Positions 7,028 to 28,627 of a stretch of DNA of 64,000 bases are shown in pieces (positions within the stretch are counted from its first letter, which is position 1; every line of letters begins with the position of its first letter). The notes below the pieces were generated by a model. It ran no database searches. It saw only the letters and a program-made list of their open reading frames with translations, and had not been told where the DNA came from. The position numbers were made by a program, and so were the translations under genes. Origin of the DNA: Patescibacteria group bacterium (GTDB taxonomy: Bacteria; Patescibacteriota; UBA1384; XYA2-FULL-43-10; 1-14-0-10-43-13); NCBI GenBank assembly GCA_041666325.1, contig JBAYHC010000002.1:157319-221318 (forward strand). Reading direction: 5' to 3'.

Positions 7028-7050
7028 TTCATTTCGAATATGATCTCAGC

Positions 7051-7080
7051 AAAAGTCCCGCGTTCACGGGACTTTTGCTA
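7051..7080 (+). terminator. Intrinsic terminator after greA
   Basis: Hairpin AAAAGTCCCG-CGTTCA-CGGGACTTTT followed by TTTGC. Confidence 0.7.
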
Positions 7081-7101
7081 TTCGGTCATCTTGGATAATC
7101 G

Positions 7102-7130
7102 TTGACGTATTTTTTCTGCCGTTGTATTAT
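7102..7130 (+). promoter_or_regulatory. Sigma70-like promoter (TTGACG-17-TATTAT) for the ORF at 7176
   Basis: Consensus-like hexamers with 17-nt spacing, about 45 nt upstream of the ATG. An AAAAGGAGA RBS precedes the start. Confidence 0.5.
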
Positions 7131-7175
7131 CGAATCACACGTTAACTCGGCTAGGATAAGCCAAAAGGAGACACC

Positions 7176-7784
7176 ATGGGAGACGAAAGAATGGAAAGAT
7201 TTTTGGGTGGCGAAGTGGGTGCATCTTATCTGCCGCATCACACAGATGAGGCGGTTATCACAAGTGTCACGGATCCAAACACCGGCGCTGTTTACACGCC
7301 AGGAGACAAAGGTGTTGGTGCTGTTCCAGTTCCCGAAGCTAGTCCTGGTGCAGACGAGACGGGGGATGAAGAATATCAGGGCCAGAAATTTGCTGTGACG
7401 ATCCGGGAGAGCGATGAGCAGCTGGGCTGGAGGAAGGTTGGCGATGAGCTGTCTCTGCCCCAAACCGGTCTTACATTTACTGATGGTTCACGTTATTTTT
7501 CTGAAGGAATAGGATCAGAGAGGCTTGATATTCCAGCCGAATCAATTAGAAAGCTTGTTCGTCCGGAGATTGTGAAGAGGTTGGAAGCGGTCATCGGTAA
7601 GGAGCTCGAAGGGCAAGTGCCGCTTACGGCGCAGATATCTCCGTCAAATTATTATGCCAACGGTGTTCGAATTGAAGATCCTGGTTTGCAGAACGAGATT
7701 TATAGCCTTATTCAAATTTATACCAATCACCGCAAACGGTTCGTTGCTCCGGGCGCAGATGAGGCCGGACCAGCAGCTAAGTAA
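7176..7784 (+). CDS. Hypothetical protein (202 aa)
   Basis: ORF with a good SD sequence and a downstream terminator. No family recognised. Confidence 0.5.
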   Translation: MGDERMERFLGGEVGASYLPHHTDEAVITSVTDPNTGAVYTPGDKGVGAVPVPEASPGADETGDEEYQGQKFAVTIRESDEQLGWRKVGDELSLPQTGLTFTDGSRYFSEGIGSERLDIPAESIRKLVRPEIVKRLEAVIGKELEGQVPLTAQISPSNYYANGVRIEDPGLQNEIYSLIQIYTNHRKRFVAPGADEAGPAAK

Positions 7785-7800
7785 ATACAGCCAATTACAA

Positions 7801-7831
7801 AAAATCATCCAGTAGATCGGATGATTTTTTG
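7801..7831. terminator. Intrinsic terminator (hairpin AATCATCC-loop-GGATGATT followed by T6), potentially bidirectional
   Basis: 8-bp stem at 7803-7810/7819-7826 followed by TTTTTT. An A-run precedes the hairpin, so it may also act on the minus strand. Confidence 0.7.
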
Positions 7832-7877
7832 ATACTAGAGTGCAGAATGAACAAACTATTGTTCGCTCTGTTCTCTG

Positions 7878-7906
7878 CTGATCCGGCGGCGGGGCCGCCG
7901 GATCAG
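7878..7906 (-). repeat. GC-rich hairpin copy A (13-bp stem CTGATCCGGCGGC / GCCGCCGGATCAG, 3-nt loop), immediately 3' of the minus-strand gene at 7915
   Basis: Perfect inverted repeat seen in the sequence; no U-tract follows it in the minus sense. It is near-identical to copy B at 8991-9019, differing by one compensatory base-pair change. Confidence 0.8.
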
Positions 7907-7914
7907 CGTGTGTG

Positions 7915-8850
7915 CTACAGCGTTCTGGCTGTCAGGACTGCGTATGGCTTCTGCGCCCTGACGTTGGTCAGCCGCCACTGATCGTTCCGGCGGTTGACTG
8001 TTACGATGTAGCTCGCCTTGGTGGCGCTGGCACCGCCAAGGATAGAGATCCAGCGGAAGTCTACCCGATACTTCCTGCCCTTCCAGAGGCAAGATGTCTC
8101 GATGGTAGGGGTGATGATTCCGGCCTCGTCGAGCGGAAGGTACGCCAGGTTGGCGCACCTCGTCGTCAGGCCGGGGTTTCCCTCGATGGCTCTGAGGCGA
8201 GCAAACTCCCTCTCGACGAAGGCCGCAGCCGGGTCCTCCTCTGCTCCGGCGTAGGGGTTCAGTCCGCGGTAGTCGTCCCCGATCAGGCTAGGATCGTGCC
8301 TGGGGAAGGGCGGAAGCGGAAAGCCACAGTGCTCGAGCGCCTCTTCGCGGCTGTCGACCTCACGGCCGATGCCCTCGAAAGCGACATTCCAGGACAGGGC
8401 ATTCATACCATAATATGGGATGGCCTCTGGTCTGACGTCGATGTCCCTCGCGGAGTTTATGATCTCCTTTTCCTTCCACTCGGGACAGTTCTTCTTCCTG
8501 TTGATGGTGTAGCGGTAGTGGCCGATCTCACGGCCGGTGGGGAAGCGGTAGATGAGGTGTGCGGCATTGCCGACTACTTCGACCTGGGTGTAATTCTCCA
8601 GGTTGGGCCATGCCTCGAAGATGGCCCAGACACGAGATTGCTCATCTGACCATTCTCCGGTGAAGGTTGGCGGCAGGGAGCCGCCTCGATAGTAGTGGAA
8701 GGTGCTGATGACCTTCTCTTCGTGCTCAGCGCATCGTTGCGACGCTTGCTCGATGTACGGCACTCCGATGCCCACTGCGATCATGCCGGCAAGCCCTGCG
8801 GCAATGAGTGTGGTCAATGCAGTTGCTGCTAGTCTTGTCAATCGTTCCAT
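7915..8850 (-). CDS. Hypothetical exported/membrane-anchored protein, high GC (cassette gene A). The ORF track extends to 8907; the likely start is the Met at 8850 (MERLTRL...)
   Basis: N-terminal hydrophobic segment (LAATALTTLIAAGLAGMIAVGIG), preceded by an AAGGAGAG RBS. GC about 62% versus about 45% for the flanking DNA. No family recognised. Confidence 0.5.
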   Translation of the reverse strand: MERLTRLAATALTTLIAAGLAGMIAVGIGVPYIEQASQRCAEHEEKVISTFHYYRGGSLPPTFTGEWSDEQSRVWAIFEAWPNLENYTQVEVVGNAAHLIYRFPTGREIGHYRYTINRKKNCPEWKEKEIINSARDIDVRPEAIPYYGMNALSWNVAFEGIGREVDSREEALEHCGFPLPPFPRHDPSLIGDDYRGLNPYAGAEEDPAAAFVEREFARLRAIEGNPGLTTRCANLAYLPLDEAGIITPTIETSCLWKGRKYRVDFRWISILGGASATKASYIVTVNRRNDQWRLTNVRAQKPYAVLTARTL

Positions 8851-8925
8851 CTTGCCTCTCCTTGCGTCGTGCACATTGGTGGGCTCGAGTGCCCAACCGA
8901 ATGACAAGCGCCAAACGATGGCTCC

Positions 8926-8943
8926 TGTTTGCGACGATCGAGA
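8926..8943 (-). promoter_or_regulatory. Conserved leader element (plus-strand text GTTTGCGACGATCGAG; minus-sense CTCGATCGTCGCAAAC) upstream of cassette gene A
   Basis: 16/17-nt identity with the element at 10038-10054 upstream of gene B. It sits inside ~130-nt leaders that are about 60-70% identical, while the two coding regions are unrelated. Confidence 0.55.
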
Positions 8944-8990
8944 TTGCTTAATCTAAACAATTATCGATTGTCACAAGAATGGTATTGTTA

Positions 8991-9019
8991 CTGGTCCGGC
9001 GGCGGGGCCGCCGGACCAG
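8991..9019 (-). repeat. GC-rich hairpin copy B (CTGGTCCGGCGGC / GCCGCCGGACCAG), 3' of the minus-strand gene at 9029
   Basis: Perfect 13-bp inverted repeat. It differs from copy A only by the A:T to G:C change at one stem position. Confidence 0.8.
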
Positions 9020-9028
9020 CTGGTATAC

Positions 9029-9970
9029 TTACTTTCGCCACGGCGGGTTGCCGAAGCGACCGAGCGGGATCTGTTTCGTCCCGGCCGTGCCGGTGGCGAT
9101 CAAGAAGTCCTCGGTGCATTCGAGCCTCTTGATGAGGCCGATCTTGGGGTTGATCCCCGTGAACATCTCGCCGAGCTTGTACTTATCCTCGAACGGCTGG
9201 TAGGCGCAGACCGCCCGAATAGTGCGGCCCTCCTCCTCGACAAGGAAGACCACGTCGTTGTGGCGGCGGTTGATTGCGAGGCAGCCGGTGCTGCCGGTGT
9301 TCTTGAACTGGGCGTCCTGGTACCGGGTGCTTTCGGACGGGCTGATGGTCTGGATGATCCCGTCCATCGTTGCGTAGGCGACTGCGCCGGTGCGCAGATC
9401 ATGGTCAAGTGCGGCCACCTCGGAGTTTTCGTTGAACCAGAGCGGCCTGCTCTGGTCCCTGGAGCAGACGGCCCAGCCGACCTTCGGCTTGGGCTCCATG
9501 ATCTGGTGCCAGGTCCTGACCCCGTACACCTGCTGATCGGGTGTGGACATGTAGGCAACCCCAACGAACTGCAGGTAGGCCTCCATGTAGGTGGCCGGCG
9601 TGAAGACCGGTGTTGACACGGCCTCCAGCCAGATGCGCATGCCCGGTTTGAGCTCCTTGAAGCGGAGGTAGTCCGGGTGGGTAGGCGGGATGCAGATCTT
9701 CCGCCAGCCGTCCTGCCCGTAGTTGACCTTGATAGTGATGTGCTTAGTGAAAGCGCGATCACTTCCCATCTGGTCCCCGTAGCTGATGGCGGTAACGACC
9801 CCGCCGTCAGCGAGCGGCTTGACGAACGCCTTCGCCTCCTCTTCGGCTCTCACCTCAGACCTTGCATTCAGGACGTCGTCCTGATGCCAGATCCAGGTTC
9901 CGACCCAGAGGGTCATGAGGATGAGGCAGAATCCAAGCGCGATCTTCAGTGACTTCTCGATCTCTGTCAT
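9029..9970 (-). CDS. Hypothetical membrane-anchored protein, high GC (cassette gene B). The ORF track extends to 10090; the likely start is the Met at 9970 (MTEIEKSLK...). It may be a Cys-dependent peptidase-like protein (STGCLAI)
   Basis: N-terminal TM (IALGFCLILMTLWVGTWIW) and a GGGAGAGAAAG RBS. The leader resembles that of gene A. A weak L,D-transpeptidase-like Cys motif is present, but the family is not established. Confidence 0.5.
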   Translation of the reverse strand: MTEIEKSLKIALGFCLILMTLWVGTWIWHQDDVLNARSEVRAEEEAKAFVKPLADGGVVTAISYGDQMGSDRAFTKHITIKVNYGQDGWRKICIPPTHPDYLRFKELKPGMRIWLEAVSTPVFTPATYMEAYLQFVGVAYMSTPDQQVYGVRTWHQIMEPKPKVGWAVCSRDQSRPLWFNENSEVAALDHDLRTGAVAYATMDGIIQTISPSESTRYQDAQFKNTGSTGCLAINRRHNDVVFLVEEEGRTIRAVCAYQPFEDKYKLGEMFTGINPKIGLIKRLECTEDFLIATGTAGTKQIPLGRFGNPPWRK

Positions 9971-10037
9971 CTGCTTTCTCTCCCAACGTCGCTGGTGGTG
10001 GCGGGTTCTTTTTCCCCAACCCAACTGCAAAGTACTC

Positions 10038-10054
10038 GTTTGCGACGATCGAGC
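10038..10054 (-). promoter_or_regulatory. Conserved leader element (CGTTTGCGACGATCGAG) upstream of cassette gene B
   Basis: Second copy of the element seen at 8926-8943. Confidence 0.55.
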
Positions 10055-10190
10055 TTGTCTGGTCTTGCCAAACAATTTCGATCGCCGCAACGTGTCGACT
10101 TTGAGAAAAATCTATTCTTTCTGATTGTTAAAGAACGTAATATCATATCATAATTTATTAAAATTGTCAATAGAGCCAAGGACAGACTGC

Positions 10191-17927: not shown

Positions 17928-18734
17928 TTGCGACCCACAAATATGTCAGAAAGCCCACAAACAAAAGAAAAATCAGCTTTGGCAGAGCCGGCTGTATCGC
18001 AAAACCAAAAGAAATCAACACAGGAAACACCTTCTCATAAGAGTAAGGATGTTGTAATTGAATTTGATCATGTTACGAAGCGTTACCCCGGTCAAATTAC
18101 AGCTGCCGACGATGTTTCTTTTAAGATTTGCTTGGGCGAGTTTATCTCAGTTGTCGGTCCGTCCGGTGCAGGGAAATCAACTCTTATTCGCCTCCTCACT
18201 TGTGAGGAGCGGCCAACAGGGGGACATATCTATGTTGCTGGTCGCGACGTGACGAAATTAAAGCCCAAAGAACTCCCATTTTATCGCCGCAAAGTAGGTG
18301 TAATTTTTCAGGATTTCAAGTTATTGCCAAGAAAAACTGTTTACGAAAACATTGCTTTTGCGCTGGAGGTTGCCGATGCTCCGAACTGGGAGATCAAAGA
18401 GAGTGTGCCCAAGATTATTGAGATCGTTGGTCTCTCGACTCGATCTAACGCTATGACGGAGGAGCTTTCTGGCGGCGAGAAACAGCGTGTTTCTATTGCG
18501 CGAGCACTGGTGCATAAGCCCAAACTTCTCATTGCTGATGAGCCAACTGGAAACTTGGACCCAGTTACCACATGGGAAATTATTGAGCTTCTTTTCAAGA
18601 TTAATCAACAGGGAACAATTGTTATCCTCGCCACACACGATCGCGAGGTTGTCGACTCACTCGAGAGAAGGGTTATGAGCATGAAGAATGGTGCCATAGT
18701 CTCCGATCAAGAGAAGGGCAAGTATATCCTCTAA
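17928..18734 (+). CDS. ftsE: Cell-division ABC transporter ATP-binding protein FtsE (with an N-terminal extension of about 45 aa)
   Basis: Walker A (GPSGAGKST), ABC signature (LSGGEKQR), Walker B (LLIADEPTGNLD). An ftsX gene follows directly. Confidence 0.85.
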   Translation: MRPTNMSESPQTKEKSALAEPAVSQNQKKSTQETPSHKSKDVVIEFDHVTKRYPGQITAADDVSFKICLGEFISVVGPSGAGKSTLIRLLTCEERPTGGHIYVAGRDVTKLKPKELPFYRRKVGVIFQDFKLLPRKTVYENIAFALEVADAPNWEIKESVPKIIEIVGLSTRSNAMTEELSGGEKQRVSIARALVHKPKLLIADEPTGNLDPVTTWEIIELLFKINQQGTIVILATHDREVVDSLERRVMSMKNGAIVSDQEKGKYIL

Positions 18735-18880
18735 ATCGAAGATTTTGAGGAAAGCTAGCAAATTTCTAATATCTAATCCCTAAACAAATCCCAATAACCA
18801 AATACTCAATTGACCAAAATTTTGAATATTAGAGCTTAGAAATTGTTTAGAAATTAGAAATTAGGATTTAGAAATTTCAC

Positions 18881-19792
18881 ATGAAACTTGTCTCATTCTT
18901 GCGCATAATCAAAACCGCCTTTGTCTCACTTTGGCGAAATCGTTGGCTTTCTTTGGCGGCAACACTAATTATGATATTGACGCTTATTACGATTTCTTTT
19001 TTCGTCAGTCTTTTATTCGTTACTAACAGGACGACAGAGACTTTGCGTGGCAAGGTTGATATGTCCGTGTATTTCGAGGACTCTACCTCGAAAGATCAAA
19101 TCTTTGCTACCCAGAATGTGCTTTTGTCCCGCTCCGATATAAAAAGTGTTGATTATGTTTCCAAAGAAAAAGCTCTTGAGCTTTGGCGTAAGCGCCACGA
19201 GGACAATGAGAAATTGAGGAATATTGTGACGGAAACTGATAATCCTCTGCCACGTAGTCTTGAGATAAAAACAGAAAATCCCGAGGATCTAGAAAAGATC
19301 AATGACCTGCTCAGCACCGCTGACTACAAACAGCTCATTCGGGAGGTTAGCTATAAGAAGAATAAAGATGTTATCAACCGTTTGGTTAAGATTACTTCTT
19401 TTATCAAGCTTGTCGGCTGGAATCTCTCCTCTGTTTTCGTTTTGATATCGATTCTAATAATCTACAATACAATCAGGCTGACCATTTTCGCTCGAAAAGA
19501 GGAGATTGAGATAATGAAGCTCGTCGGTGCATCGGACTGGTATGTTCGTGGCCCATTTGTGATAGAGGGGGTGTCATACGGCATAGTCGCTGCCGTTGTC
19601 TCAACTCTAGTTTTCTATTCAATTTTTAAACTCACTATACCGGATATCGAGCAATACCTAGGTTTGTCTAACCTTAACTCCTACTATCTTGGCTTGAATG
19701 CATGGTTTATAATATTATTGCAAGGCATCATTGGTTTAGTGCTAGGGGCGCTTTGCTCAGTGTTCGCAATACGTCGGCACTTGAAATACTAG
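18881..19792 (+). CDS. ftsX: Cell-division permease-like protein FtsX
   Basis: Four-TM FtsX topology with a large first extracellular loop. Position directly after ftsE supports the call. Confidence 0.8.
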   Translation: MKLVSFLRIIKTAFVSLWRNRWLSLAATLIMILTLITISFFVSLLFVTNRTTETLRGKVDMSVYFEDSTSKDQIFATQNVLLSRSDIKSVDYVSKEKALELWRKRHEDNEKLRNIVTETDNPLPRSLEIKTENPEDLEKINDLLSTADYKQLIREVSYKKNKDVINRLVKITSFIKLVGWNLSSVFVLISILIIYNTIRLTIFARKEEIEIMKLVGASDWYVRGPFVIEGVSYGIVAAVVSTLVFYSIFKLTIPDIEQYLGLSNLNSYYLGLNAWFIILLQGIIGLVLGALCSVFAIRRHLKY

Positions 19793-19881: not shown

Positions 19882-21135
19882 ATGTCTGGCCAAAGACATA
19901 AAATAATCATATTATCTAAGATAAAATGGAAACGGACAGTGTCCCTGCTTTTATTGTGGGCCATTCTCTTTTCTTTCGCTTCAACCGTTTCGGCTTCGAC
20001 TCTTGATGATCTAATCAAGCAACAGAAGCTAAATGCCTCTATAGCTGAATCAGCGCGGAAGCAAAGAGAGCAGAAGGAGAAGGACGCTGCGTTGGTTAAA
20101 AATCAGATTGAGTATGTCAGCGACAAGATAGATGAAGCGGCCGATGCTATTGAATCGACGCAGGGCCAAATCTCAAGTACCGAAGAAACAATTGATGAGC
20201 TCACCGATAAGATTAGGGCCGAAGAAGACAATCTTGCCAAGGAGAACGACAGGCTTAAGGGAGTAGTGTCTTCGTGGTACATGGAGGGCGAAGATGGTTT
20301 TTTGATCTCGATGATAAGCTCTGACAATTTATCCCAGATGGTGACGCAGCAACAGTACTACGATTCTATTAGGCAACAGATTGACATCTCCATGAATAAG
20401 ATCCAGCAGTTGAAGGACGAGTTGCAAAAGCAGAAGGGTGAGACGACGGGTCAGTATATGGTGCTGCAGGGACTCAAGAACAATCAGCTCAGCCAGAAAA
20501 ACAATCTTGAGTTGCAAAAGAGAATTAAAGATCGATTGCTGAACGACACAAAGGCGATGGTCTCCGAGCTAAGTGTTGAAGAAGAACAGGCAAGAGCTAG
20601 AGTCGCCGAGCTGCAGTCTAAGATTGACCAGATTAAGGCTGCGTCGGTTGGAACTGGGGGTGATGTTATCTCTACTTCAGCCGAGGGTTGGTATTTAAAG
20701 CAGGTTGATGACAGGTGGAGTGACTATAAGATGGGAAATTATGCAACAATTGGTCTTTATGGCTGTCTAATAACCTCTCTTGCCATGATCGCAAACTACT
20801 ATGGCTCAAACTATACACCTGTGACAGCAGTACAAAATTCCTCATTTGTTCGCGGCGGGAGATCGGATGGCGCATTGATACAAACGTCTATCGTTAGTGA
20901 TGGGGGATCTGTCCCAATTGATTGGGCCAAGGTTGACACAGAGCTAGCAGCAAGCCATCCAGTCGTTGTCGGCGTGGCTATGGGTGTCGATATGGGCAAC
21001 ACTTATGGTGTTTCTCATTTCGTTGTACTAAAGTCCAAGATGTCAGACGGCAGATACGCGATGCAGGATCCTCTTGGTGAAGGGCGAGGCTATCGCAAAT
21101 CGCAAATCAAGGCGATGAGAGTTGTCAGACCTTGA
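19882..21135 (+). CDS. Secreted coiled-coil protein with a C-terminal papain-like (C39-like / Peptidase_C39_2-type) cysteine peptidase domain; a PcsB/CwlO/RipC-style partner of FtsEX
   Basis: Signal peptide, then about 230 aa of heptad-rich coiled coil, then the C-terminal motifs YGCLITSLAMIANYYG (Cys), SHFVVL (His) and MQDP. The gene order ftsE-ftsX-this gene supports the role. Confidence 0.55.
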   Translation: MSGQRHKIIILSKIKWKRTVSLLLLWAILFSFASTVSASTLDDLIKQQKLNASIAESARKQREQKEKDAALVKNQIEYVSDKIDEAADAIESTQGQISSTEETIDELTDKIRAEEDNLAKENDRLKGVVSSWYMEGEDGFLISMISSDNLSQMVTQQQYYDSIRQQIDISMNKIQQLKDELQKQKGETTGQYMVLQGLKNNQLSQKNNLELQKRIKDRLLNDTKAMVSELSVEEEQARARVAELQSKIDQIKAASVGTGGDVISTSAEGWYLKQVDDRWSDYKMGNYATIGLYGCLITSLAMIANYYGSNYTPVTAVQNSSFVRGGRSDGALIQTSIVSDGGSVPIDWAKVDTELAASHPVVVGVAMGVDMGNTYGVSHFVVLKSKMSDGRYAMQDPLGEGRGYRKSQIKAMRVVRP

Positions 21136-21437: not shown

Positions 21438-22664
21438 GTGGAAAAAGATTTCAACTCAAAAATAAAGAAAAAACACTTTCTCAAATTGGTGACTCCTGTC
21501 TTGGTTTGTGCAATATTGGTTTACCTCTCTTTTGCGATTGGATATACCCAGGGCCAAAAAAACTTTGTTTCCAAGAATCAGGACAAGGTTGTCAATACCG
21601 AATCAGGTAAACCGAAAGACGTTAGTTTCTCAATCTTTTGGGAAACCTGGAACAAGCTGAGAGAAAAATCTGTTACCGAAACTGATGCTCAAAAGATGAT
21701 TGACGGATCAATCTCCGGAATGGTCTCATCGCTCGATGATCCTTACACCATGTTCATGAGCAAGGAAGAAAATAAGCGTTTCCGTGAGGATATTTCTGGC
21801 GAGTTCGGAGGAATCGGAGTCGAAATTGCACCCAAAGATGGGGTGCCGACCGTTGTGTCTGCGCTTGATGGTACTCCAGCACAGAAGGCTGGGATTAAGA
21901 CAGGTGATATCGTCGATGAAGTTGACGGCACTAAGACTTCAACAATCAGTTTTGAGGAAACAATAAACAAAATTCGTGGCCAAAAGGGCTCTGAGGTTAA
22001 ACTAAAAATCGTTCGTGCAGCAACTGCCGACCCAATTGAATACAGCGTTGTTAGAGATACCATTGTCGTTAAGAGCGTCCAATGGGAGAGGAAGAAGGAG
22101 GGTAGCAAGGACATCCTTTACATCAAGGTTAGACAATTCGGTGACGATACTAGCAAGGGTTTTTCTGATATCGCCAAGGAGGTTGCTGCATCAAAGCCTG
22201 ATGGGATAGTTGTCGATCTGCGCAACAACCCTGGCGGGTACTTGGTGACAGCCGTTGACTTGGCCAGTTACTTTATCGATGGCGGCGTGGTTGTTTCTGA
22301 GAAAGGCAAAAACGACAAAGTCAAAGAATACAAAACAACGACTAAGGCTCGCTTAAAAAATTATAAATTGGCCGTGCTGGTGAACAAAGGGTCTGCTTCT
22401 GCTTCGGAGATTTTTGCCGGAGCGGTTCAAGACAGGGGCTCAGGAAAAATATTCGGAGAAAAAACCTTTGGCAAAGGGAGTGTCCAGGAGCTAGTTGAGC
22501 TTTCCGATGGTTCTGCCTTAAAGGTTACGGTTGCAAAGTGGTTTACGCCAAAAGGGCGCCAGATAAATGAGCAGGGAATCTCTCCCGATGTTGAAGTAAG
22601 CGATCAGGAATCAACCGCGGATGACGAGCAGCTCATCAAGGCTCTTGAGTATGTGAGAAATTAA
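21438..22664 (+). CDS. ctpA: Carboxyl-terminal processing protease (S41 family, PDZ domain)
   Basis: PDZ segment (GIKTGDIVDEVDG), S41 catalytic region (GSASASEIFAGAVQD, K in TFGKGS). GTG start immediately downstream of a TATAAT box. Confidence 0.85.
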   Translation: MEKDFNSKIKKKHFLKLVTPVLVCAILVYLSFAIGYTQGQKNFVSKNQDKVVNTESGKPKDVSFSIFWETWNKLREKSVTETDAQKMIDGSISGMVSSLDDPYTMFMSKEENKRFREDISGEFGGIGVEIAPKDGVPTVVSALDGTPAQKAGIKTGDIVDEVDGTKTSTISFEETINKIRGQKGSEVKLKIVRAATADPIEYSVVRDTIVVKSVQWERKKEGSKDILYIKVRQFGDDTSKGFSDIAKEVAASKPDGIVVDLRNNPGGYLVTAVDLASYFIDGGVVVSEKGKNDKVKEYKTTTKARLKNYKLAVLVNKGSASASEIFAGAVQDRGSGKIFGEKTFGKGSVQELVELSDGSALKVTVAKWFTPKGRQINEQGISPDVEVSDQESTADDEQLIKALEYVRN

Positions 22665-22703: not shown

Positions 22704-24815
22704 GTGCAGACGACCAAATGGAGGGAGTTAGTGGCAGGGGATAATTCTACAAATACGACCCAAAGTTCTGCAACAAGCGTGCCGAATGCGGTTGCGGTTC
22801 CAGTAGCGCAACCAAATTCTGGAAGTCCTTGGGACGAGGATATTGACTTGCCCTCGGAGGAACCAGGGGTGAAGCCAACCGTGATTGGTTCTCTTGACGA
22901 TAGCGGTGACGAGAGCGCGCCAGTTCCTTTTTCTGTTCCAAAAGATATTGAGGAAAAGATTGGCCAGAAGGTTCCAGCAGAGAACTATATTGATCCTGAT
23001 CCCAGCAAAGTCGCTGCTGCAACATCCACCACTATTCCGGCGCAAATCCCAACAAACGAAAAAACTGTCGACACAATCAAGCCTAATGTCGGTCAAACTC
23101 AAGTCGCTAGCAACCCTTCAGCGCAAGTGGGGAGTCGGCCCAATTCTGGGCAAGTGCCAAGCCAAAATATTGTTGCAAACCTAAAAGCAAAAATTGAAAA
23201 CAAACCACAACACGATGAAAAGGCGCTCTCGCTAAATTCCTCTAATGATTATGTGGCACAAAAAATTGGTATAGATTCCGCCAGTCCACCCGCTGAAGCA
23301 GTGCCAGTTCCTGCCGTTGCCCCAAAGAAGACGTCCAGTTTTGAAATTGTTAGACTAATCCCCTTGTTTGTCTTGGTAATACCTCTATTCTTATTGCTAA
23401 TTTTGTCGCTGCTCACAGAAAAGGGTTTTTTGTCGATCGGAGTTGAGAAGATCTATGGTGCTGTCGGCTTAGAACGACTTTGGGGCGGTCTGTCCAAGGA
23501 TGCCGAGAGTTCACTTGTTAGAAGCGTGGTGGAAATGAGATCCCATCCCAACTTTAAGATAAAAGGGACAATGACTTTGTCGATTGATAAGTCTATAAAG
23601 TCGATAATTGTTTCGCCTCTCGTTGCAATCGGCCCGGATAAAAATATTGTCGCTGACTCGAATGTCTTAAATATTGTTACGGCTGCTATAACTCAGGGTA
23701 CTTCGAATGGTAGCTCTTCTGCCTACGATTACACCATAACAAATAGCTATCTTGACGAGACTTCAAGCGATGATCCCGGCTCTGGCTCTGATACTAGCTC
23801 CAGTTCTGTCTACGATGATGTTGCATCCACCGGTACCTCGGCATCGAGTTCGGCTGGTAGCTCAACAACCACGAAGAAACAAGAGGATTATCCTTCGTAC
23901 CAATATCAAGGATCGACAATCAAAGATGTCGACGTCAGTATTGCGTCATCGTTTGGGGAAAACGGAAACGAGAGCACACTGGAGGTCAAAAAAACTAGTG
24001 GAACCTATCCGGTCTTGCTGAAGAACAAAGAAGATAAATTATGGTTGAAGAGTGATCCCTATATCAAATATAGCAATCGAGTGAGCAATGATCAGTGGCT
24101 CGAGTACACCATTCCCTCACTCTTGGGCAAAAAAGTCCAGTCAGAGTTTTTCTCGCTCAAATCTGACGCCGGCCTATCGGTGCGTGGAATAAGGTTGGGC
24201 AATGAAAAGATCGGGGGTGAGAGGGCTTATCATTACAAGGTTTCCAGTTTTGAGATTGGTAACTCGCTATCATCTTTGGGCATAACTTCGGATATGGTCC
24301 AGAGTGTCTCGGGCGATATTTGGATCGGAGTTGAGGACAAACTGATCAAGCGGGCCGAACTGAAGATTCTGACCTCGCCTTCAACTGCAGTAACACAGAT
24401 CATTCTAAAGGCTGATTTTATTGACTACGACGTAGAAAATAGGTTAACGGCTCCCGAGGATAATTTGGTCATTAAAGCCACCGAGGATGATCTAAGTGTC
24501 AATACTGATGTGCGGCGCAAGGGTGATCTGGCAACAATTCGCGATGCGCTAGAGGAGTACAAAGTTGATAATGACAAGTATCCGGAAACCAACGGTATTG
24601 TCAAACTTAATAGTCCTGGTAATATCTTAGGCAGTAGACTCGTACCCAGTTATCTCGCTGCGTTGCCATCGGATCCGAAAGCTACGGAGGGTTGGTATTA
24701 TTCTTACAAGTCGGATGGGAAAACCTTTAGTCTTGGGTCGCGCCTAGAAAATGAGACAGATCCCGAGGGTCAGTCTGTTGGTTCGGTGTACCTTTATCTT
24801 TTGTATAATAAGTAA
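22704..24815 (+). CDS. Large type-II membrane protein (703 aa) with a low-complexity cytoplasmic N-terminus, one TM, a Ser/Thr-rich linker and a C-terminal GspG/type-IV-pilin-like (pseudopilin fold) domain. The probable real start is the GTG at 22731
   Basis: The C-terminus (DLATIRDALEEYKVDNDKYPETNG...LPSDPKATEGWYYSYKSDGKTFSLGS) closely parallels the GspG/PulG core (LxxYxxDNGxYPxxxxGL...LPxDPWGxxYxY...FSLGxDG). No prepilin G/FTLIE leader is present. The internal TM is IVRLIPLFVLVIPLFLLLILSLL. Confidence 0.5.
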   Translation: MQTTKWRELVAGDNSTNTTQSSATSVPNAVAVPVAQPNSGSPWDEDIDLPSEEPGVKPTVIGSLDDSGDESAPVPFSVPKDIEEKIGQKVPAENYIDPDPSKVAAATSTTIPAQIPTNEKTVDTIKPNVGQTQVASNPSAQVGSRPNSGQVPSQNIVANLKAKIENKPQHDEKALSLNSSNDYVAQKIGIDSASPPAEAVPVPAVAPKKTSSFEIVRLIPLFVLVIPLFLLLILSLLTEKGFLSIGVEKIYGAVGLERLWGGLSKDAESSLVRSVVEMRSHPNFKIKGTMTLSIDKSIKSIIVSPLVAIGPDKNIVADSNVLNIVTAAITQGTSNGSSSAYDYTITNSYLDETSSDDPGSGSDTSSSSVYDDVASTGTSASSSAGSSTTTKKQEDYPSYQYQGSTIKDVDVSIASSFGENGNESTLEVKKTSGTYPVLLKNKEDKLWLKSDPYIKYSNRVSNDQWLEYTIPSLLGKKVQSEFFSLKSDAGLSVRGIRLGNEKIGGERAYHYKVSSFEIGNSLSSLGITSDMVQSVSGDIWIGVEDKLIKRAELKILTSPSTAVTQIILKADFIDYDVENRLTAPEDNLVIKATEDDLSVNTDVRRKGDLATIRDALEEYKVDNDKYPETNGIVKLNSPGNILGSRLVPSYLAALPSDPKATEGWYYSYKSDGKTFSLGSRLENETDPEGQSVGSVYLYLLYNK

Positions 24816-24896: not shown

Positions 24897-25442
24897 ATGT
24901 GGATTGCAATTGGTGCTGTTGTCGCTGTCATTCTTATTGTCGCAGTAATGTACAATCGATTAGTATCGCTGAAAACAAGAACAGAGGAAGCTTGGAGCGA
25001 TATTGATGTTCAGCTCAAGCGCAGGTATGATTTGATTCCCAACCTGGTCGAGACTGTCAAAGGTTATGCAAAGCACGAAAAAGGACTCCTGGAAGAGGTC
25101 ACAAGGGCTAGGGCGGAGGCAATTAGCGCTAAGGGAATTGGGCCGCAGGCCAAGGCAGAGAATCACATAACGGAAGCTTTGCGTTCAGTTTTTGCTGTAG
25201 CTGAGAATTACCCTGACCTCAAGGCAAATCAGAATTTTGCGCAGTTGCAGTCTGAGATAACCGATACCGAGGACAAAATTCAGGCTGCTCGTCGTTTTTA
25301 CAATGGAAATGTGCGCGATCTCAATATTGCAATAAGGAGCCTTCCAACCAATATTATTGCTGGCCTCTTCGGATTTAAGGAAAGAGAGTTGTTTGAGCTG
25401 GAAAATGAAGCCGAGCGCAAGCCTGTCGAGGTTAAGTTCTAA
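24897..25442 (+). CDS. lemA: LemA family protein
   Basis: N-terminal TM plus the conserved LemA core (YNRLVSLKTRTEEAWSDIDVQLKRRYDLIPNLVETVKGYAKHE). Confidence 0.8.
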   Translation: MWIAIGAVVAVILIVAVMYNRLVSLKTRTEEAWSDIDVQLKRRYDLIPNLVETVKGYAKHEKGLLEEVTRARAEAISAKGIGPQAKAENHITEALRSVFAVAENYPDLKANQNFAQLQSEITDTEDKIQAARRFYNGNVRDLNIAIRSLPTNIIAGLFGFKERELFELENEAERKPVEVKF

Positions 25443-25471: not shown

Positions 25472-25888
25472 ATGCCTGCCAAAAGTGGATTAGCCATTCA
25501 TCACAAGATAAGAGAAAAAGCTAAACACATAGCGCGACAAGTGTCGAAGAGAATCAAGCCCAAGAAGAAAAAACAGAACGATTTTCCTTTGATAGAGAAT
25601 AATGTTAAGTCAAGAATTATGGCAGCGTTGTCATATGTTCATGTCGTTGTCTTGGTACCGTTGGTTTTTGCTCGAAAAAATAGCTACGTTAAATTTCATG
25701 CCAAACAGGGTGTTGGGTTGTTGATCATTTGGCTTCTAGCACTTCTTCTCTTTTGGGTACCAATAGTTGGCTGGCTGCTGGTTCTTGTTTCCGTTGCCGG
25801 CCTGTTTTTTGGGGTTACGTCAGCACTCACCGGACAGGAAAAACGTTTGCCCGTCATCGGCCGGATGGCCCAGAGCTTCAAGGTCTAA
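25472..25888 (+). CDS. Small membrane protein (DUF4870-like?)
   Basis: Basic N-terminus then 2-3 TM helices, located between lemA and htpX. Confidence 0.4.
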   Translation: MPAKSGLAIHHKIREKAKHIARQVSKRIKPKKKKQNDFPLIENNVKSRIMAALSYVHVVVLVPLVFARKNSYVKFHAKQGVGLLIIWLLALLLFWVPIVGWLLVLVSVAGLFFGVTSALTGQEKRLPVIGRMAQSFKV

Positions 25889-26083
25889 GCGAGCTCGGTA
25901 TTTGACTTATTGAGTCGGGAGAGATATTTTCAGGCTGATAGTTCGTGTTTAAAGATAGCAGTAAGGCAGTGGGGAAGTAAGCTTCAAGACGGTTGCTCGA
26001 TTTGTTGCTCTACTGATCTTGCCGCATCATTATTTACTGGTATCTTGTTTGTTATTTGAAATTTTGACTTAGGACTTATTGTT

Positions 26084-26956
26084 ATGTATTCACAAATTGA
26101 TTCAAACAAGCGAAGAACAGCTTTTCTACTCGCCATCTTTCTAATATTCATTATTGGCCTAGGTTGGTTCTTGTCACGGGTTTATGGTAATCCGGCCATA
26201 CTTTACATTGCGGCAATTTTTAGTATGGTTCAGACACTCGTAAGTTACTATTACTCTGATAAAATTGCCCTGGCCGTTTCCAACGCCACGGAAGCGCCAA
26301 GAAAGGAGCCGTTTCTTGAGCTTCATCGTATTGTGGAGAATCTTGCTATCACAGCCGGAATTCCTCGGCCGAAAATTTATATAATCGAGGATAGTGCCCC
26401 GAATGCGTTTGCTACCGGGCGTGATCCGAAACATGCGGCTGTTGCCGTAACGACGGGGCTGTTGTCCAAATTAAATAAACCTCAGATGGAGGGCGTGATC
26501 GCACACGAGCTTTCGCATATTGGTAATTATGATATTCGCCTGATGACGGTAGTGGTTGTGCTGGTCGGCACAGTAGCGCTTGCGGCGGATTGGTTTTTGC
26601 GCAGTCTTTGGTTTCATGGCGACAGGGAGGAAAGACAAGGTGGTCAATTTCTTATCTTGATAGGAATTGTCTTGGCTGTGGTGGCGCCAATCGCAGCAAC
26701 GTTGATTCAGCTGGCGATCAGTCGAAAGCGCGAGTATTTGGCGGACGCAACCGGCGCTCTCATGACCCGCTATCCCGACGGTTTGGCTGAGGCGCTTGAG
26801 ATAATTGCCAAGGACAAGGAGCCGCTCGAAGTAGCTAACCGGGCAACCGCCCATCTCTACATTTCAAATCCACTTAAGGGCGTGAATATATCAACACTGT
26901 TTTCGACTCACCCGCCGATTGAAGACCGAGTCAAACGACTCCGCCATATGGCATGA
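26084..26956 (+). CDS. htpX: Zinc metalloprotease HtpX (M48)
   Basis: HExxH motif (AHELSHI), four TM segments, conserved C-terminal stretch STHPPIEDRVKRL. Confidence 0.85.
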   Translation: MYSQIDSNKRRTAFLLAIFLIFIIGLGWFLSRVYGNPAILYIAAIFSMVQTLVSYYYSDKIALAVSNATEAPRKEPFLELHRIVENLAITAGIPRPKIYIIEDSAPNAFATGRDPKHAAVAVTTGLLSKLNKPQMEGVIAHELSHIGNYDIRLMTVVVVLVGTVALAADWFLRSLWFHGDREERQGGQFLILIGIVLAVVAPIAATLIQLAISRKREYLADATGALMTRYPDGLAEALEIIAKDKEPLEVANRATAHLYISNPLKGVNISTLFSTHPPIEDRVKRLRHMA

Positions 26957-26962
26957 GGACAA

Positions 26963-26993
26963 ATAAAAAAGCGGGGGGCCAGGCTCCCCCGCT
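26963..26993. terminator. GC hairpin (GCGGGGGG-CCAGGC-TCCCCCGC) with an A-run on its 5' side. It works as an intrinsic terminator for the minus-strand gene at 27018 and may also terminate htpX
   Basis: 8-9-bp stem seen in the sequence. The U-tract lies in the minus sense. Confidence 0.55.
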
Positions 26994-27017: not shown

Positions 27018-27599
27018 TCACCGAGGCGAGAACTTGATCGGAAAGGTCTTGGTCGCACTCTTGCCTTTCCACTCGATCTTGACCAGGACCTCGCCACGGT
27101 CCATCTTGGGGAGCAAGACGCTCTCTTCGTGTTCGAAAATGAAGACGTCCTTTGGCGGTGCCAAGGAACGCCACTCGTAGGAGATGACCGGAGTCATCCT
27201 GCCTGCGATCTTCTCGTGGTGCATGTAGAACTTGCTTGTCTCGAACTTGCGACGCCGGTAGGCGATGTAGTGGCCGTTTGCGTCACGTAACCAGATGTGG
27301 GTAGTTAGCCCACGGATCAGGGGTACCCAGGCGAACACCTGCATGCTGTTGATGTCGGTGTACTGGAAGGACTTGCCGTTCGGGTCCAGGCCGGACTCGA
27401 ACTGGGGCAGGGCCTCCTTTGTTACCGTAACAAGGGCCTTCTCAAAGAAGGTGCTGGGCTGGTAGCTGCGGATCTTCTCCTCGCGCAGGTCTTCGCGACT
27501 CCCCTTGACTGTCTCGCAGCGCAAATCCGGCGGGATAGGTCCCGCAAGCGCCGCCGACATGGCCGTGACGACCAAGGTTATAATCAGCCGTTGTTTCAT
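27018..27599 (-). CDS. Hypothetical secreted protein, high GC. The ORF track extends to 27716; the likely start is the Met at 27599 (MKQRLIITLVVTAMSAALAG...)
   Basis: Signal-peptide-like N-terminus, GGAGGGA RBS, and an upstream TTGCAC-17-TACAGT promoter at about 27618-27646 (minus sense). No family recognised. Confidence 0.5.
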   Translation of the reverse strand: MKQRLIITLVVTAMSAALAGPIPPDLRCETVKGSREDLREEKIRSYQPSTFFEKALVTVTKEALPQFESGLDPNGKSFQYTDINSMQVFAWVPLIRGLTTHIWLRDANGHYIAYRRRKFETSKFYMHHEKIAGRMTPVISYEWRSLAPPKDVFIFEHEESVLLPKMDRGEVLVKIEWKGKSATKTFPIKFSPR

Positions 27600-27681
27600 C
27601 GGTATCCCTCCGTCTCTCTGCCTGGCGGTGATACTGTACAATATTTTGCCTTTTTGTGCAATAGTTAGCGACAGGACGAAG

Positions 27682-27711
27682 AAAAAAGCCAGCGGGCTAT
27701 ATGCCGCTGGC
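27682..27711 (-). terminator. Intrinsic terminator of the WD40-like gene (GCCAGCGG-GCTATATG-CCGCTGGC followed by U6 in the minus sense)
   Basis: Perfect 8-bp stem directly after the stop codon at 27713, followed by TTTTTT on the minus strand. Confidence 0.7.
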
Positions 27712-27712
27712 G

Positions 27713-28627
27713 TCAAAGGGTCAGGCCCTGGATGAGGCCATTATCGAGCGCAATATAAAGTGTATCCGGCGAAGCGGCAAGAGATGTAATTCTTCGATTG
27801 AAACGCATAACATTTGCAACTCGCTCGCAGTTACCGAGTTGTTCGAATAGTCCCAGTCTGAACACATCTTCGTTGTCTTCCTTGATCGCCGCTGCTAAAA
27901 TTTTGTCCCAGAGCGTCATGGCAGTAATCCAGCCATAATAAGTTCCAATGAAACGACCCTCGCGCCGCTCTGCCGCCACCTCCTCGACTAGATGCAAGCG
28001 TACCTCAGCTTGCGAGCCAATGGCAATCAGGTCTTTGCCGTAGGGGCCACAGGGCCGGATCGAGCTCATTGACCAGGCAAAACTTGTTCCATTGGTGCAA
28101 CCATCGTAATCTTCCTCGAAATCTCCCCAGCGATAGCGCTTGGTCTGTGCATCCGTTACGGCGATCAGATTCTTCTGTGAGTCAAAGTGGAGGCCAACCA
28201 CATTCTCTTTGCTGATCGGAATAAACTTGAGAAGACCGGGCAAGTGGATGTCCCAGATGCCAATCCCCTGGCAACTTCCACTGGCAATCAGGCCATTATT
28301 ACTGAAAGCCAAGGCCATTATCACATTCTTGTCGTGCGGGGAGTAGATCGCAACAGGATTTACCTCCCCTGGTTCTTCTTCAAGGCTATGGAGATAGATA
28401 TCGCCCTTAACGTTGCCGTAGGCTGCCAACTTGCCATCAGGTGAGACTGCTTGAGCGGTGAAATTGCGCAAGAAAGTGCCAGAGCTAGTCCTAACTTTCT
28501 GCTTCGTGTTGTAGACCCAGAAGCCTTTGCCGGCAGTGGCAACAAGCACCAGGCCATCATCGGAGATGACTAGCCTTGGTATATCCCCCTTCTTTATTCC
28601 AAGATGGGCCAAGTTGTAAAGGTTCAT
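27713..28627 (-). CDS. WD40/beta-propeller repeat protein (hypothetical)
   Basis: Repeated GxxDGxxxAxxxxxxxIxLW-type units (PDGKLAAYGNVKGDIYLHSL; GLIASGSCQGIGIWDI). Strong GGAGGTGA RBS. Confidence 0.55.
   Translation of the reverse strand: MNLYNLAHLGIKKGDIPRLVISDDGLVLVATAGKGFWVYNTKQKVRTSSGTFLRNFTAQAVSPDGKLAAYGNVKGDIYLHSLEEEPGEVNPVAIYSPHDKNVIMALAFSNNGLIASGSCQGIGIWDIHLPGLLKFIPISKENVVGLHFDSQKNLIAVTDAQTKRYRWGDFEEDYDGCTNGTSFAWSMSSIRPCGPYGKDLIAIGSQAEVRLHLVEEVAAERREGRFIGTYYGWITAMTLWDKILAAAIKEDNEDVFRLGLFEQLGNCERVANVMRFNRRITSLAASPDTLYIALDNGLIQGLTL

Follow-up and report, generated by a model that had tools for sequence, protein, structure and literature searches.

Pilins and pseudopilins of the GspG/PulG/EpsG type, other T2SSG-type pilins (PF08334) and the CPR prepilins P0171-P0174 share a head in which a long alpha1C helix lies on a small antiparallel sheet. 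GspG-type pilins begin with a class III signal peptide, the residues Gly-1, Phe+1 and Glu+5, and a hydrophobic alpha1N helix. In the modular minor pilins (Streptococcus sanguinis PilB/PilC, ETEC CofB, V. cholerae TcpB and GspK) the pilin module is N-terminal, with leader and alpha1N, and the extra domain rides on the fiber. Two further groups invite comparison with the protein described here: the LolA/LolB/LprG/LppX/RseB/MucB superfamily, through predicted fold, and the bitopic FtsN/SPOR proteins, as a functional analogy only. Our protein reverses the order and logic of the modular minor pilins: its pilin module stands at the C-terminus, stripped of the polymerization helix. We found no description of leaderless C-terminal pilin-head proteins in the literature.

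The gene lies at 22704..24815 (+ strand) of a 64,000-nucleotide stretch from the genome of an ultrasmall Patescibacteria group (CPR) bacterium (contig JBAYHC010000002.1), hereafter the window. Read from a GTG at 22704 and with the stop included, this ORF encodes 703 aa of a predicted single-pass, N-in/C-out membrane protein. The probable true start, read from the sequence, is a GTG at 22731 that follows a Shine-Dalgarno GGAGG (22718..22733, +) and gives a 694-aa product; the ENA/Logan and JGI gene calls are also of 694 aa, and homologues begin MADxxN. A sequence-only reading of this DNA had proposed a cytoplasmic low-complexity N-terminus, one internal TM, an extracytoplasmic beta domain and a leaderless C-terminal pilin head. 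This layout is real, and there is good support for the architecture. Scans for Rfam families and tRNAs gave no match anywhere in the window.

The C-terminal pilin head

Structure prediction, which had been suggested as a check on the C-terminus, gives a pilin fold: residues 601-703 (24504..24812, +) form a globular alpha/beta-roll head with an alpha1C helix, a short helix and a four-stranded sheet. The head is 27-33% identical to GspG/PulG/EpsG and the CPR prepilins, with which it shares the motifs RD..RKSDL...I..AL..Y..D.G.YP and P.DP....Y.Y.S.G..Y.L...LE. Its conserved LEN.SD.EG loop is aligned with the GADGQEGGEG loop at the C-terminal end of V. cholerae EpsG, a region in which GspG-type pseudopilins have their calcium site. 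Homology to genuine CPR prepilins starts at 'RDxxRKSDL' and extends from alpha1C onward only (alignment A4). In the same alignment, the slot of the hydrophobic alpha1N helix of real pilins is occupied by a short polar linker (residues 593-600, 24480..24503, +), the residues preceding alpha1C are polar (VENRLTAPEDNLVIKATEDDLSVNTD), and KGFTLIELL, Glu5 and alpha1N have no equivalents. Unlike the aligned CPR prepilins, the protein has no Cys pair at their cysteine positions. Profile versions of the search with the C-terminal domain succeeded where a single-sequence word-index search returned three candidates, none of them significant.

A regex scan found no prepilin motif (class III signal peptide) in the protein or in any ORF of the window, and none in leader position in 143 relatives (0/143); the few loose matches in relatives fall inside or just after the internal TM. 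An alternative start, which the earlier reading had named as a point to check, and a cryptic prepilin site were considered and rejected: neither candidate start codon yields a prepilin peptide.

The protein might still be cut at a cryptic internal site and then built into a fiber. It matches Pfam PF08334 (T2SSG) at 24.5 bits against a cut-off of 21, and its NCBI PGAP product name is GspG. However, it scores only 24.9 bits against a cut-off of 88.85 with the NCBIfam GspG equivalog TIGR01710; it contains a PF08334 domain yet is not GspG. Besides the missing class III signal peptide, Glu5 and alpha1N, its sole hydrophobic segment (residues 218-237) comes ~360 residues before the head, with a LolA/LprG-like half-barrel, a folded domain of 330 residues, in between, and a conserved Glu follows the TM rather than opening it. 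No T4P/T2SS genes (PilB/GspE ATPase, PilC/GspF platform, PilD peptidase) were found with Pfam among the 40 largest ORFs of the window, and the genes called at up to 8 kb from the gene in loci L001, L003 and L005 include none either; the window also showed no further pilin-like genes. Because the general view of Patescibacteria is that they are monoderm, a type II secretion system would lack an outer membrane to cross. Incorporation into a fiber is, on this evidence, extremely improbable.

Unlike GspG-type pilins, the protein thus carries its head at the C-terminus of ~700 aa, with its own distant TM and with no pilus or T2SS neighbors found. Given these differences it cannot work as a polymerizing subunit, and we infer that it is probably neither a pilus nor a type II secretion subunit. 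This supports the earlier suggestion of a head presented on its own, with no pilus being built.

Cytoplasmic tail, membrane anchor and LolA-like domain

The cytoplasmic N-terminus holds three short motifs, all of them conserved: SPWDEDIDLPS (22824..22856, +; family consensus SPWdE.Ld.pe), PTVIGSLD (22875..22898, +) and PFSVPKDIEEKIGQKVPAENYI (22926..22991, +; consensus pFnvP.nieekVG.KipA). In the first of these, S41, P42 and W43 are invariant (alignment A1); the motif is found in 72 of the 156 top representatives of the family and, among the 1081 ORFs of the window and the loci, is confined to these proteins. The only TM, a signal anchor at residues 218-237 (23355..23414, +) located by a hydropathy scan and from the sequence, is modeled as a helix (15-35 in model m23e4cbe2bb1c). 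It is flanked on its N-terminal side by K208, K209 and R217, and the positive-inside rule, together with the extracytoplasmic type of the downstream folds, predicts an N-in topology. Next comes the best conserved piece of the protein, the 27-aa juxtamembrane peptide LTEKGFLSIGVEKIYGAVGLERLWGGL (23412..23492, +), which has many invariant columns. A related motif, GWISLGGLEKLWGG, follows the TM in orthologues of 236-290 aa, and the juxtamembrane motif is absent from orthologues of 370-480 aa.

What had been described as a beta-rich middle region is, in the predicted structure, a LolA/LprG/RseB-like half-barrel, that is, an antiparallel beta-barrel that stays unclosed and has a helix or lid at its N-terminal end. 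In the AF2 model, searched against the PDB with Foldseek, residues 264-300 (23493..23603, +) supply the N-terminal helix and first strand, and residues 404-592 (23913..24479, +) the main beta half-barrel. The 13 Foldseek matches with E <= 1e-3 (LprG, RseB, LolA3, Outer-membrane lipoprotein carrier protein and one DUF1329 protein) are all of the LolA/LprG/RseB type of fold. LprG (3mh9_A) was matched with E 2.8e-5, prob 1.0 and TM(target) 0.53, and RseB (3m4w_C) with E 1.6e-5; LolA3, MucB, LolA and LolB were matched as well. The query, a 499-residue model, returned only LolA-like matches, because the larger domain dominates, and the pilin head was modeled separately (head-only model). With a model pLDDT of 60-90 in the domain, the LolA-like fold holds at the level of predicted structure. 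Pfam LolA, LppX_LprAFG, MucB_RseB, DUF4367 and the like gave no match to the protein and 13 homologues at E <= 0.05, and placing the domain in a LolA-type Pfam family by sequence was dropped for this reason; the NCBIfam SCO4651-lipoprotein model gave a weak, sub-threshold match to residues 497-585 (15.8 bits against a cut-off of 65).

Unlike members of the LolA superfamily, which the domain resembles in predicted fold but not in detectable Pfam-family sequence similarity, the protein is TM-tethered and has no lipobox or cleaved signal peptide, and its domain is fused to a pilin head and split by a disordered insertion of ~100 residues. This Ser/Thr/Asp-rich stretch (residues 301-403, 23604..23912, +; pLDDT <50; S 23%, T 11%) had been taken for a stalk. 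It is instead a loop inserted in the LolA-like domain, deleted in the homologue P0009 and missing from L016.

If the LolA/LprG-like pocket were the working part, for instance in the scavenging or shuttling of host lipids, the protein would be a lipid or lipoprotein handling factor and its pilin head an accessory targeting domain. The match to the lipid-binding LprG and LolA folds is confident, and CPR bacteria, to our knowledge, lack lipid biosynthesis. Against this stand the lack of a sequence match to any LolA-type Pfam family and the short positional orthologues (236-480 aa), from which the LolA-like domain is missing, so that the family must have its core elsewhere. We regard a primary role in lipid handling as very unlikely.

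Family and gene neighborhood

The protein is no singular case. It is a member of a very large, conserved and CPR-wide family, which is uncharacterized and for which "GspG" is a database label. An exhaustive profile search returned 8650 cluster representatives at E <= 1e-3; at the stricter E <= 1e-10 there are 881. The best 150 of the 8650 share the leaderless layout: every one of them places the head at, or close to, the C-terminal end, a prepilin motif is missing throughout, and with few exceptions there is a single internal TM; the few shortest of them resemble fragments. Among 156 top sequences, the head lies within 5 aa of the end in 127, and a TM is present in 143 and situated beyond residue 40 in 139. 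More than 100 separate clusters at 50% identity show this architecture. Mean pairwise identity reaches 72% in the juxtamembrane peptide, 50% in the head and 47% in the N-terminal motifs, and is ~20% in the disordered regions, a pattern that points to conserved endogenous partners.

Such a pattern bears on the earlier proposal of a surface adhesin, which could also be a host-recognition protein: a pilin-type tip on a stalk would touch the host of this presumably episymbiotic bacterium. Type IV pili adhere through their pilin heads, the head of our protein is predicted to be extracytoplasmic and has disordered Ser/Thr-rich sequence nearby, and some variants in the family carry two heads, others 4-6 in tandem; type IV pili have been shown to drive host binding in Saccharibacteria (PMC11623550). 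Yet a head so much better conserved than the disordered regions, and encoded at a core housekeeping location, is hard to reconcile with an adhesin. Few parts of the protein are as conserved as the head, which keeps 37-56% identity across lineages whose hosts are presumably different, and the gene occurs once, as a positional orthologue within a housekeeping block rather than in a variable or pilus locus. Moreover, there is no long stalk, since the linker before the head is just 8 residues long and the S/T-rich sequence forms an internal loop. We hold an adhesin to be rather improbable.

The orthologue search in related genomes that had been recommended was productive: positional orthologues of 236-880 aa are found between ctpA(-rplI) and lemA(-htpX) across CPR lineages (36 GTDB loci), in a housekeeping block that shows no pilus genes and whose order, with the gene at its place, is ftsE-ftsX-hydrolase-ctpA-(rplI)-gene-lemA-membrane protein-htpX-...-ligA. 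In the window, ftsE and ftsX (17928..19792, +; from their translations and from Pfam ABC_tran, FtsX_ECD and FtsX on orthologous genes) are followed by the gene of a coiled-coil protein with a C39-like cysteine peptidase domain (19882..21135, +), a slot that holds a coiled-coil + M23 protein in most relatives. The upstream neighbor, across a gap of 39 nt, encodes a ctpA/ctpB-type S41 C-terminal processing peptidase with PDZ (21438..22664, +). Downstream, lemA (24897..25442, +) follows after 81 nt, and then come the genes of a MamF/MmsF-like small membrane protein and htpX (M48) (25472..26956, +). A terminator scan found no convincing intrinsic terminator on the + strand between ftsE and htpX and a strong hairpin only after htpX (26970-26993), which is compatible with co-transcription but no proof of it.

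Across lineages, lemA is the most constant neighbor, directly downstream in 29 of the 36 GTDB loci, and ctpA lies upstream in most of them. The position after ctpA, on which the earlier reading had relied, is therefore conserved, but it is a loose one because rplI intervenes in 12 loci; the tight neighbor is lemA. The ctpA/lemA synteny includes loci that match by the head alone, where the protein has 236-480 aa, and the universal parts of the orthologues are the cytoplasmic tail, the TM and the head only.

With ctpA upstream and htpX downstream in most loci, the protein could be a substrate or sensor in regulated envelope proteolysis, a counterpart of RseA/RseB in its pairing with DegS/RseP, or of SpoIVFA in its pairing with CtpB. 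Its ectodomain would first be trimmed by the PDZ protease CtpA; after a further step in the membrane, by HtpX or RseP, the tail in the cytoplasm would be set free as a signal. The RseB/MucB-like fold of the middle domain, the conserved motifs on the tail, and an M50 RseP-type protease and HtrA that are also encoded in the window are in line with such a cascade. CtpA/CtpB-type proteases, however, usually prefer non-polar tails, whereas the C-termini of the family are variable and often polar; rplI splits ctpA from the gene in the 12 loci mentioned, short orthologues do without the RseB-like domain, and the protein has neither an anti-sigma domain nor an adjacent ECF sigma factor. We consider this alternative distinctly improbable. 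An anti-sigma factor reading was rejected in its own right, as the protein has neither a zinc-finger nor an anti-sigma domain and the gene lacks a conserved sigma neighbor; a sigma-70 gene lies near the gene in L001 only.

By analogy with FtsN/SPOR proteins, the protein might also serve as a coupling factor of the divisome or elongasome: one of its motifs in the cytoplasm would bind a cytoskeletal protein (FtsA or MreB), the juxtamembrane peptide would activate a peptidoglycan synthase, and a flexible linker with the C-terminal pilin head, replacing SPOR, would localize the protein to a cell-wall feature. The order of parts in FtsN (cytoplasmic motifs, TM, juxtamembrane peptide, linker and globular C-terminal domain) is matched here, with 27 aa at 72% identity in the place of the juxtamembrane peptide, the gene lies three genes downstream of ftsEX and the wall hydrolase, and mltG, mreB, mreC and pbp2 are in the window. 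The analogy is nevertheless purely architectural, as the protein has no sequence or fold relation to FtsN or SPOR and its C-terminal domain is a pilin head. Orthologues of 370-480 aa also lack the juxtamembrane peptide, pilin heads are not known to bind peptidoglycan, and the gene lies outside any dcw cluster. A role of this kind is unlikely.

A proposed envelope scaffold or tether

The function that we infer, and to which we give slightly better than an even chance, is that of a non-polymerizing, Sec-inserted CPR envelope scaffold or tether with a globular head taken over from a type IV pilin as its C-terminal ectodomain. Sec/YidC would insert the protein as a signal-anchor protein; being neither processed by prepilin peptidase nor extracted into a filament, it would display a monomeric pilin head outside the membrane. 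The cytoplasmic short motifs and the juxtamembrane peptide would dock cytoplasmic and membrane partners, and the head, plus the LolA-like pocket in long forms, would bind an extracytoplasmic ligand. Insertion, monomeric display, docking and ligand binding of this kind would make the protein a trans-membrane scaffold or tether for envelope maintenance, acting most plausibly with its constant neighbor LemA(-HtpX) and/or CtpA. No LemA-HtpX mechanism was found in the literature.

Counting against a link to LemA, HtpX or CtpA, the block also holds the unrelated housekeeping genes rplI, ligA, secA and iPGM, so that the neighborhood may be a matter of a gene order that has stayed frozen, and not of a function in common. 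Counting against the scaffold or tether itself, the juxtamembrane motif and the LolA-like domain are each missing from some orthologue classes, and, with pilus genes looked for in the window and near the gene in three loci, a pilus-related role of the head keeps some probability. In the cultured Saccharibacterium Southlakia epibionticum, a response regulator and not an orthologue of our protein follows the S41 peptidase (PMC10633639), which also counts against it and for which reason the published Tn-seq data of this organism could not be transferred to the protein.

More tentatively, and with a real but minority chance of being right, we propose that a pilin head minus its polymerization helix was fixed early in Patescibacteria as the outer module of a core, vertically inherited coupling protein, FtsN-like or LemA/HtpX-linked, that ties a cytoplasmic partner, via SPWDE-type motifs, to an extracellular ligand. 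If true, the pilin fold would gain a new functional class, that of a monomeric receptor or tether instead of a fiber subunit, and a gap would be filled in what is known of the CPR envelope or division machinery, which is poorly understood. Although Patescibacteria account for much of bacterial diversity, little is known of how they build their envelope and divide, and a function has yet to be assigned to many of their conserved proteins; the present family is widespread among them, at a fixed place in a housekeeping block. The name "GspG" could make genome surveys count T2SS or pilus components that are absent, and recognizing a leaderless, non-polymerizing pilin-head protein corrects this annotation and provides a case in which the pilin fold has been put to new use as an ordinary ectodomain. 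The three cytoplasmic motifs, the juxtamembrane peptide, the LolA-like pocket and the head offer experimental handles in the few cultivable CPR strains.

We finally considered whether the ORF could be an artifact, a misassembly chimera or a frameshift fusing two genes; nothing was found in favor of this, and we see next to no probability in it. Assemblies made independently show the full-length architecture, as do dozens of clusters at 50% identity, and the identical protein occurs on two contigs that were assembled separately. Its NCBI copy, MFA6531850.1, has 703 aa, and a further database copy (P0001, 694 aa) is 100% identical to our protein.

A pilin head without a leader

The reading frame of X, the protein under study, runs on the plus strand through 703 codons, from a GTG at 22704 to a stop at 24815, as read from the sequence and called by NCBI. 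Translation from an alternative GTG at 22731, which follows a GGAGG box at a distance of 7 nt, would yield a protein of 694 aa. This version agrees with the gene calls of ENA/Logan and JGI, and homologues likewise begin 'MADxxN'. No prepilin peptide arises from either start, and the absence of a leader noticed by the sequence-only reading thus survived the search for a hidden one.

The only Pfam domain in X is PF08334 (T2SSG; residues 606-677, 24.5 bits, gathering cut-off 21), also matched by 10 of 13 homologues, while against the NCBIfam GspG equivalog model X reaches 24.9 bits, well under the cut-off of 88.85. The best seven matches of a PDB sequence search are all GspG, EpsG or PulG chains. 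An AF2 model of residues 598-703, which cover the C-terminal head (601-703), was built from a 13-sequence alignment and is confident (pTM 0.87, pLDDT 93.3). It has a pilin fold, as the proposed GspG-like core would predict: two helices, one of 25 residues and one short, and a sheet of four strands, with EpsG and Clostridioides difficile PilA1 on top of a Foldseek search of the PDB, at weak scores. The head profile also recovers genuine prepilins carrying PF07963 (the N-terminal methylation motif) and PF08334 at E values of 1e-14 to 1e-5, one from a record naming Candidatus Levybacteria. When X is aligned with six genuine prepilins, the first homologous stretch is exactly 'RDxxRKSDL', where alpha1C, the helix opening the head, begins; where real pilins carry KGFTLIELLIVIxIIGIL, X has a polar linker. 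The C-terminal domain of X is a pilin head, homologous to prepilins from alpha1C on, and the leader, Glu5 and alpha1N are missing.

The pilin-family domain could suggest a true pseudopilin, but X fails on leader, alpha1N, equivalog score and machinery context, which makes this extremely improbable; neither pilus or secretion machinery, nor a second pilin-like domain, nor a prepilin motif was found in the 64-kb window. X should therefore not be filed as GspG, a product name that is misleading for its family. In modular minor pilins the domains come in the reverse order. Type IV filament polymerisation depends on alpha1N, the hydrophobic helix, so X would not be pulled into a fibre. It would be inserted co-translationally as a signal-anchor protein, beyond reach of prepilin peptidase and fibre extraction, and, neither cleaved nor drawn into a fibre, would display its head as a monomer.

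Cytoplasmic tail, anchor and middle domain

Residues 1-217 are of low complexity (S, P, V and A at 10-11% each) but contain three short conserved stretches, SPWdE.Ld.pe, P.viGsLd and pFnvP.nieekVG.KipA; the first defines a set of 72 representative clusters, whose alignment shows the second and third in its consensus. The sole hydrophobic segment spans residues 218-237. Since K208, K209 and R217 lie on its N-terminal side and the downstream folds are of extracytoplasmic type, we infer an N-in/C-out signal anchor. Straight after it comes LTEKGFLSIGVEKIYGAVGLERLWGGL, the most conserved part of X: mean pairwise identity is 72% in this juxtamembrane peptide, 50% in the head, 47% in the cytoplasmic motifs and about 20% in disordered regions.

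The AF2 model of residues 205-703 has a mean pLDDT of 64.6, pulled down by disorder, with folded parts mostly at 60-90. All 13 of its Foldseek matches in the PDB at E <= 1e-3 have a LolA/LprG/RseB-type fold, among them LprG 3mh9_A (E 2.8e-5, prob 1.0, TM(target) 0.53), RseB 3m4w_C (E 1.6e-5), LolA3, an outer-membrane lipoprotein carrier protein and one DUF1329 protein; MucB, LolA and LolB rank just outside this set. The region previously described only as beta-rich is thus modelled as a LolA-like domain. No LolA-type Pfam family matched X or its 13 homologues by sequence, and X differs from LolA-like proteins in lacking both sequence membership and a lipobox. A lipid-handling protein with this pocket at its centre would account for the modelled fold; we consider it highly improbable.

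Residues 301-403 (S 23%, T 11%, pLDDT below 50), taken earlier for a stalk, lie in the model between the first strand and the remainder of the barrel; the homologue P0009 has them deleted, and the Nealsonbacteria orthologue L016 lacks them. They are therefore better described as a variable insertion loop. The linker to the head has 8 residues in X and up to about 35, rich in T/S/P/A, in homologues.

A widespread family in a conserved neighbourhood

An initial search returned thirteen full-length homologues (28-42% identity); that the reading frame is an assembly artefact is next to impossible. When the head profile was run exhaustively with HMMER against 1.84 billion cluster representatives, 8650 matched at E <= 1e-3, of which 881 reach E <= 1e-10 and 63 reach E <= 1e-30. 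In every one of the best 150 of the 8650 (128-1101 aa, the few shortest apparently fragments), the head sits at the C-terminus or close to it. Among 156 analysed sequences, the head lies within 5 residues of the protein end in 127, a transmembrane segment is present in 143 and begins beyond residue 40 in 139, and no member of the set shows a prepilin motif at the leader position. The search for orthologues thus revealed a large family predicted from sequence to share the leaderless layout. Two tandem heads occur in the long-form members P0014-P0017 and four to six behind an N-terminal anchor in P0018 and P0085, and proteins of about 400-430 aa at loci L038-L040 (about 6990-8290) join an N-terminal CxxC...CxxC zinc ribbon, a transmembrane segment and a head. 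Given these variants, the leaderless head is a mobile extracytoplasmic module that behaves as a general repeat module in Patescibacteria (CPR). In full-text literature searches, neither proteins with a leaderless pilin head at the C-terminus nor this family were found described. X represents a widespread, well-supported CPR envelope family; recognising it corrects an annotation error and offers concrete motifs for testing, and by itself settles no open question.

The window is a housekeeping stretch (including mltG, mreB, mreC, pbp2, greA, serS, secA, iPGM, ftsE and ftsX; also gatA, gatB, htrA, prmC, prfA, an M50 protease gene, proS, uvrC, glycolytic genes, tig and clpP). X is preceded by genes for a coiled-coil protein with a C39-like peptidase domain and for CtpA, and followed by lemA, a MamF/MmsF-like membrane protein gene, htpX and ligA. 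Across GTDB species, each represented by one genome, 36 loci were found; all except a few come from MAGs that bear the label Candidatus Saccharibacteria, Berkelbacteria, Nealsonbacteria or 'Patescibacteria group'. The matched gene is directly followed by lemA in 29 of the 36, then usually by htpX and ligA, and has ctpA upstream in most. This neighbourhood is kept even at loci matched by the head alone, whose products are either short (236-290 aa: PPEPMG motif, transmembrane segment, GWISLGGLEKLWGG, S/T/P linker, head) or medium (370-480 aa: SPLE[EQ] and TDEFL.SIL motifs, transmembrane segment, linker, head, short tail). By position, X thus has orthologues at all these loci, although their length varies. 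Every form has a cytoplasmic tail bearing an acidic short motif, a single transmembrane segment and the head, to which particular lineages have added the LolA-like domain and juxtamembrane peptide.

The gene order may be frozen as much as functional, because in 12 loci of several CPR lineages (L005, L015-L017, L021, L024, L026, L029-L031, L034, L037), though not in the window, ctpA and the X orthologue are separated by rplI (ribosomal protein L9), and the unrelated secA, iPGM and ligA share the block. In Southlakia Tn-seq tables, a response regulator, not X, follows the S41 peptidase (PMC10633639). A scan of the plus strand found no convincing terminator between ftsE and htpX; a strong hairpin lies just past htpX (+).

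The identity pattern and core-genome location speak for partners that are endogenous and conserved, and against rapidly evolving ligands of the host. A surface adhesin, which a displayed head might suggest, is accordingly unlikely. For the same reason we favour X as a transmembrane scaffold or tether in envelope maintenance, which would act with LemA(-HtpX) and/or CtpA; the helical domain of LemA is predicted to be cytoplasmic by the positive-inside rule, on the same side as the X motifs. We lean slightly towards this statement as a whole; its architectural part is near certain and its functional part, taken alone, less likely than not. With division and elongation genes in the same stretch, X could instead be an FtsN/SPOR-like coupling factor, a rather unlikely but not negligible reading, and with ctpA and htpX close by, a substrate or sensor in regulated proteolysis, which is quite unlikely.

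Other features of the window

Envelope proteases are dense: besides ctpA and htpX there are an HtrA-type PDZ serine protease (40196-41392, +) and an M50 (RseP-type) site-2 protease (47931-49010, +). The coiled-coil protein after ftsEX (19882-21135, +) carries a C39-like domain (PF13529, 27.8 bits), where most relatives have M23 (L001, L003, L005) and Southlakia has CHAP. It aligns full-length with L014 (57%) and with M23 relatives over the coiled-coil part alone (34-44% identity), as if the catalytic domain had been exchanged on a conserved scaffold that partners FtsX. Between htpX and ligA, two minus-strand genes (27018-28627) encode a 304-aa WD40-like beta-propeller (weak Pfam matches) and a 232-aa protein without matches; since relatives carry different genes there (sigma-70 in L001, Amidase_2 and PaaX_M in L003), this interval is a variable slot in an otherwise fixed order.

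Positions 7900-10100 have a G+C of 0.60, against about 0.45-0.48 for the genome. Two ORFs lie there on the minus strand, at 7915-8907 (330 aa) and 9029-10090 (353 aa); both products carry a hydrophobic segment at the N-terminus and lack Pfam matches. The segment may be acquired DNA, or the ORFs may encode membrane proteins specific to the lineage. No tRNA gene or Rfam family at gathering threshold was found in the 64-kb window. Almost all genes lie on the plus strand and cumulative GC skew climbs steadily, consistent with a single replichore. In the region 54296-56046, the tpiA ORF (54296-55060, +) overlaps the gap ORF, listed from TTG 54997, by 64 nt; since the Gp_dh_N match does not begin until residue 21, translation of gap probably starts further downstream.
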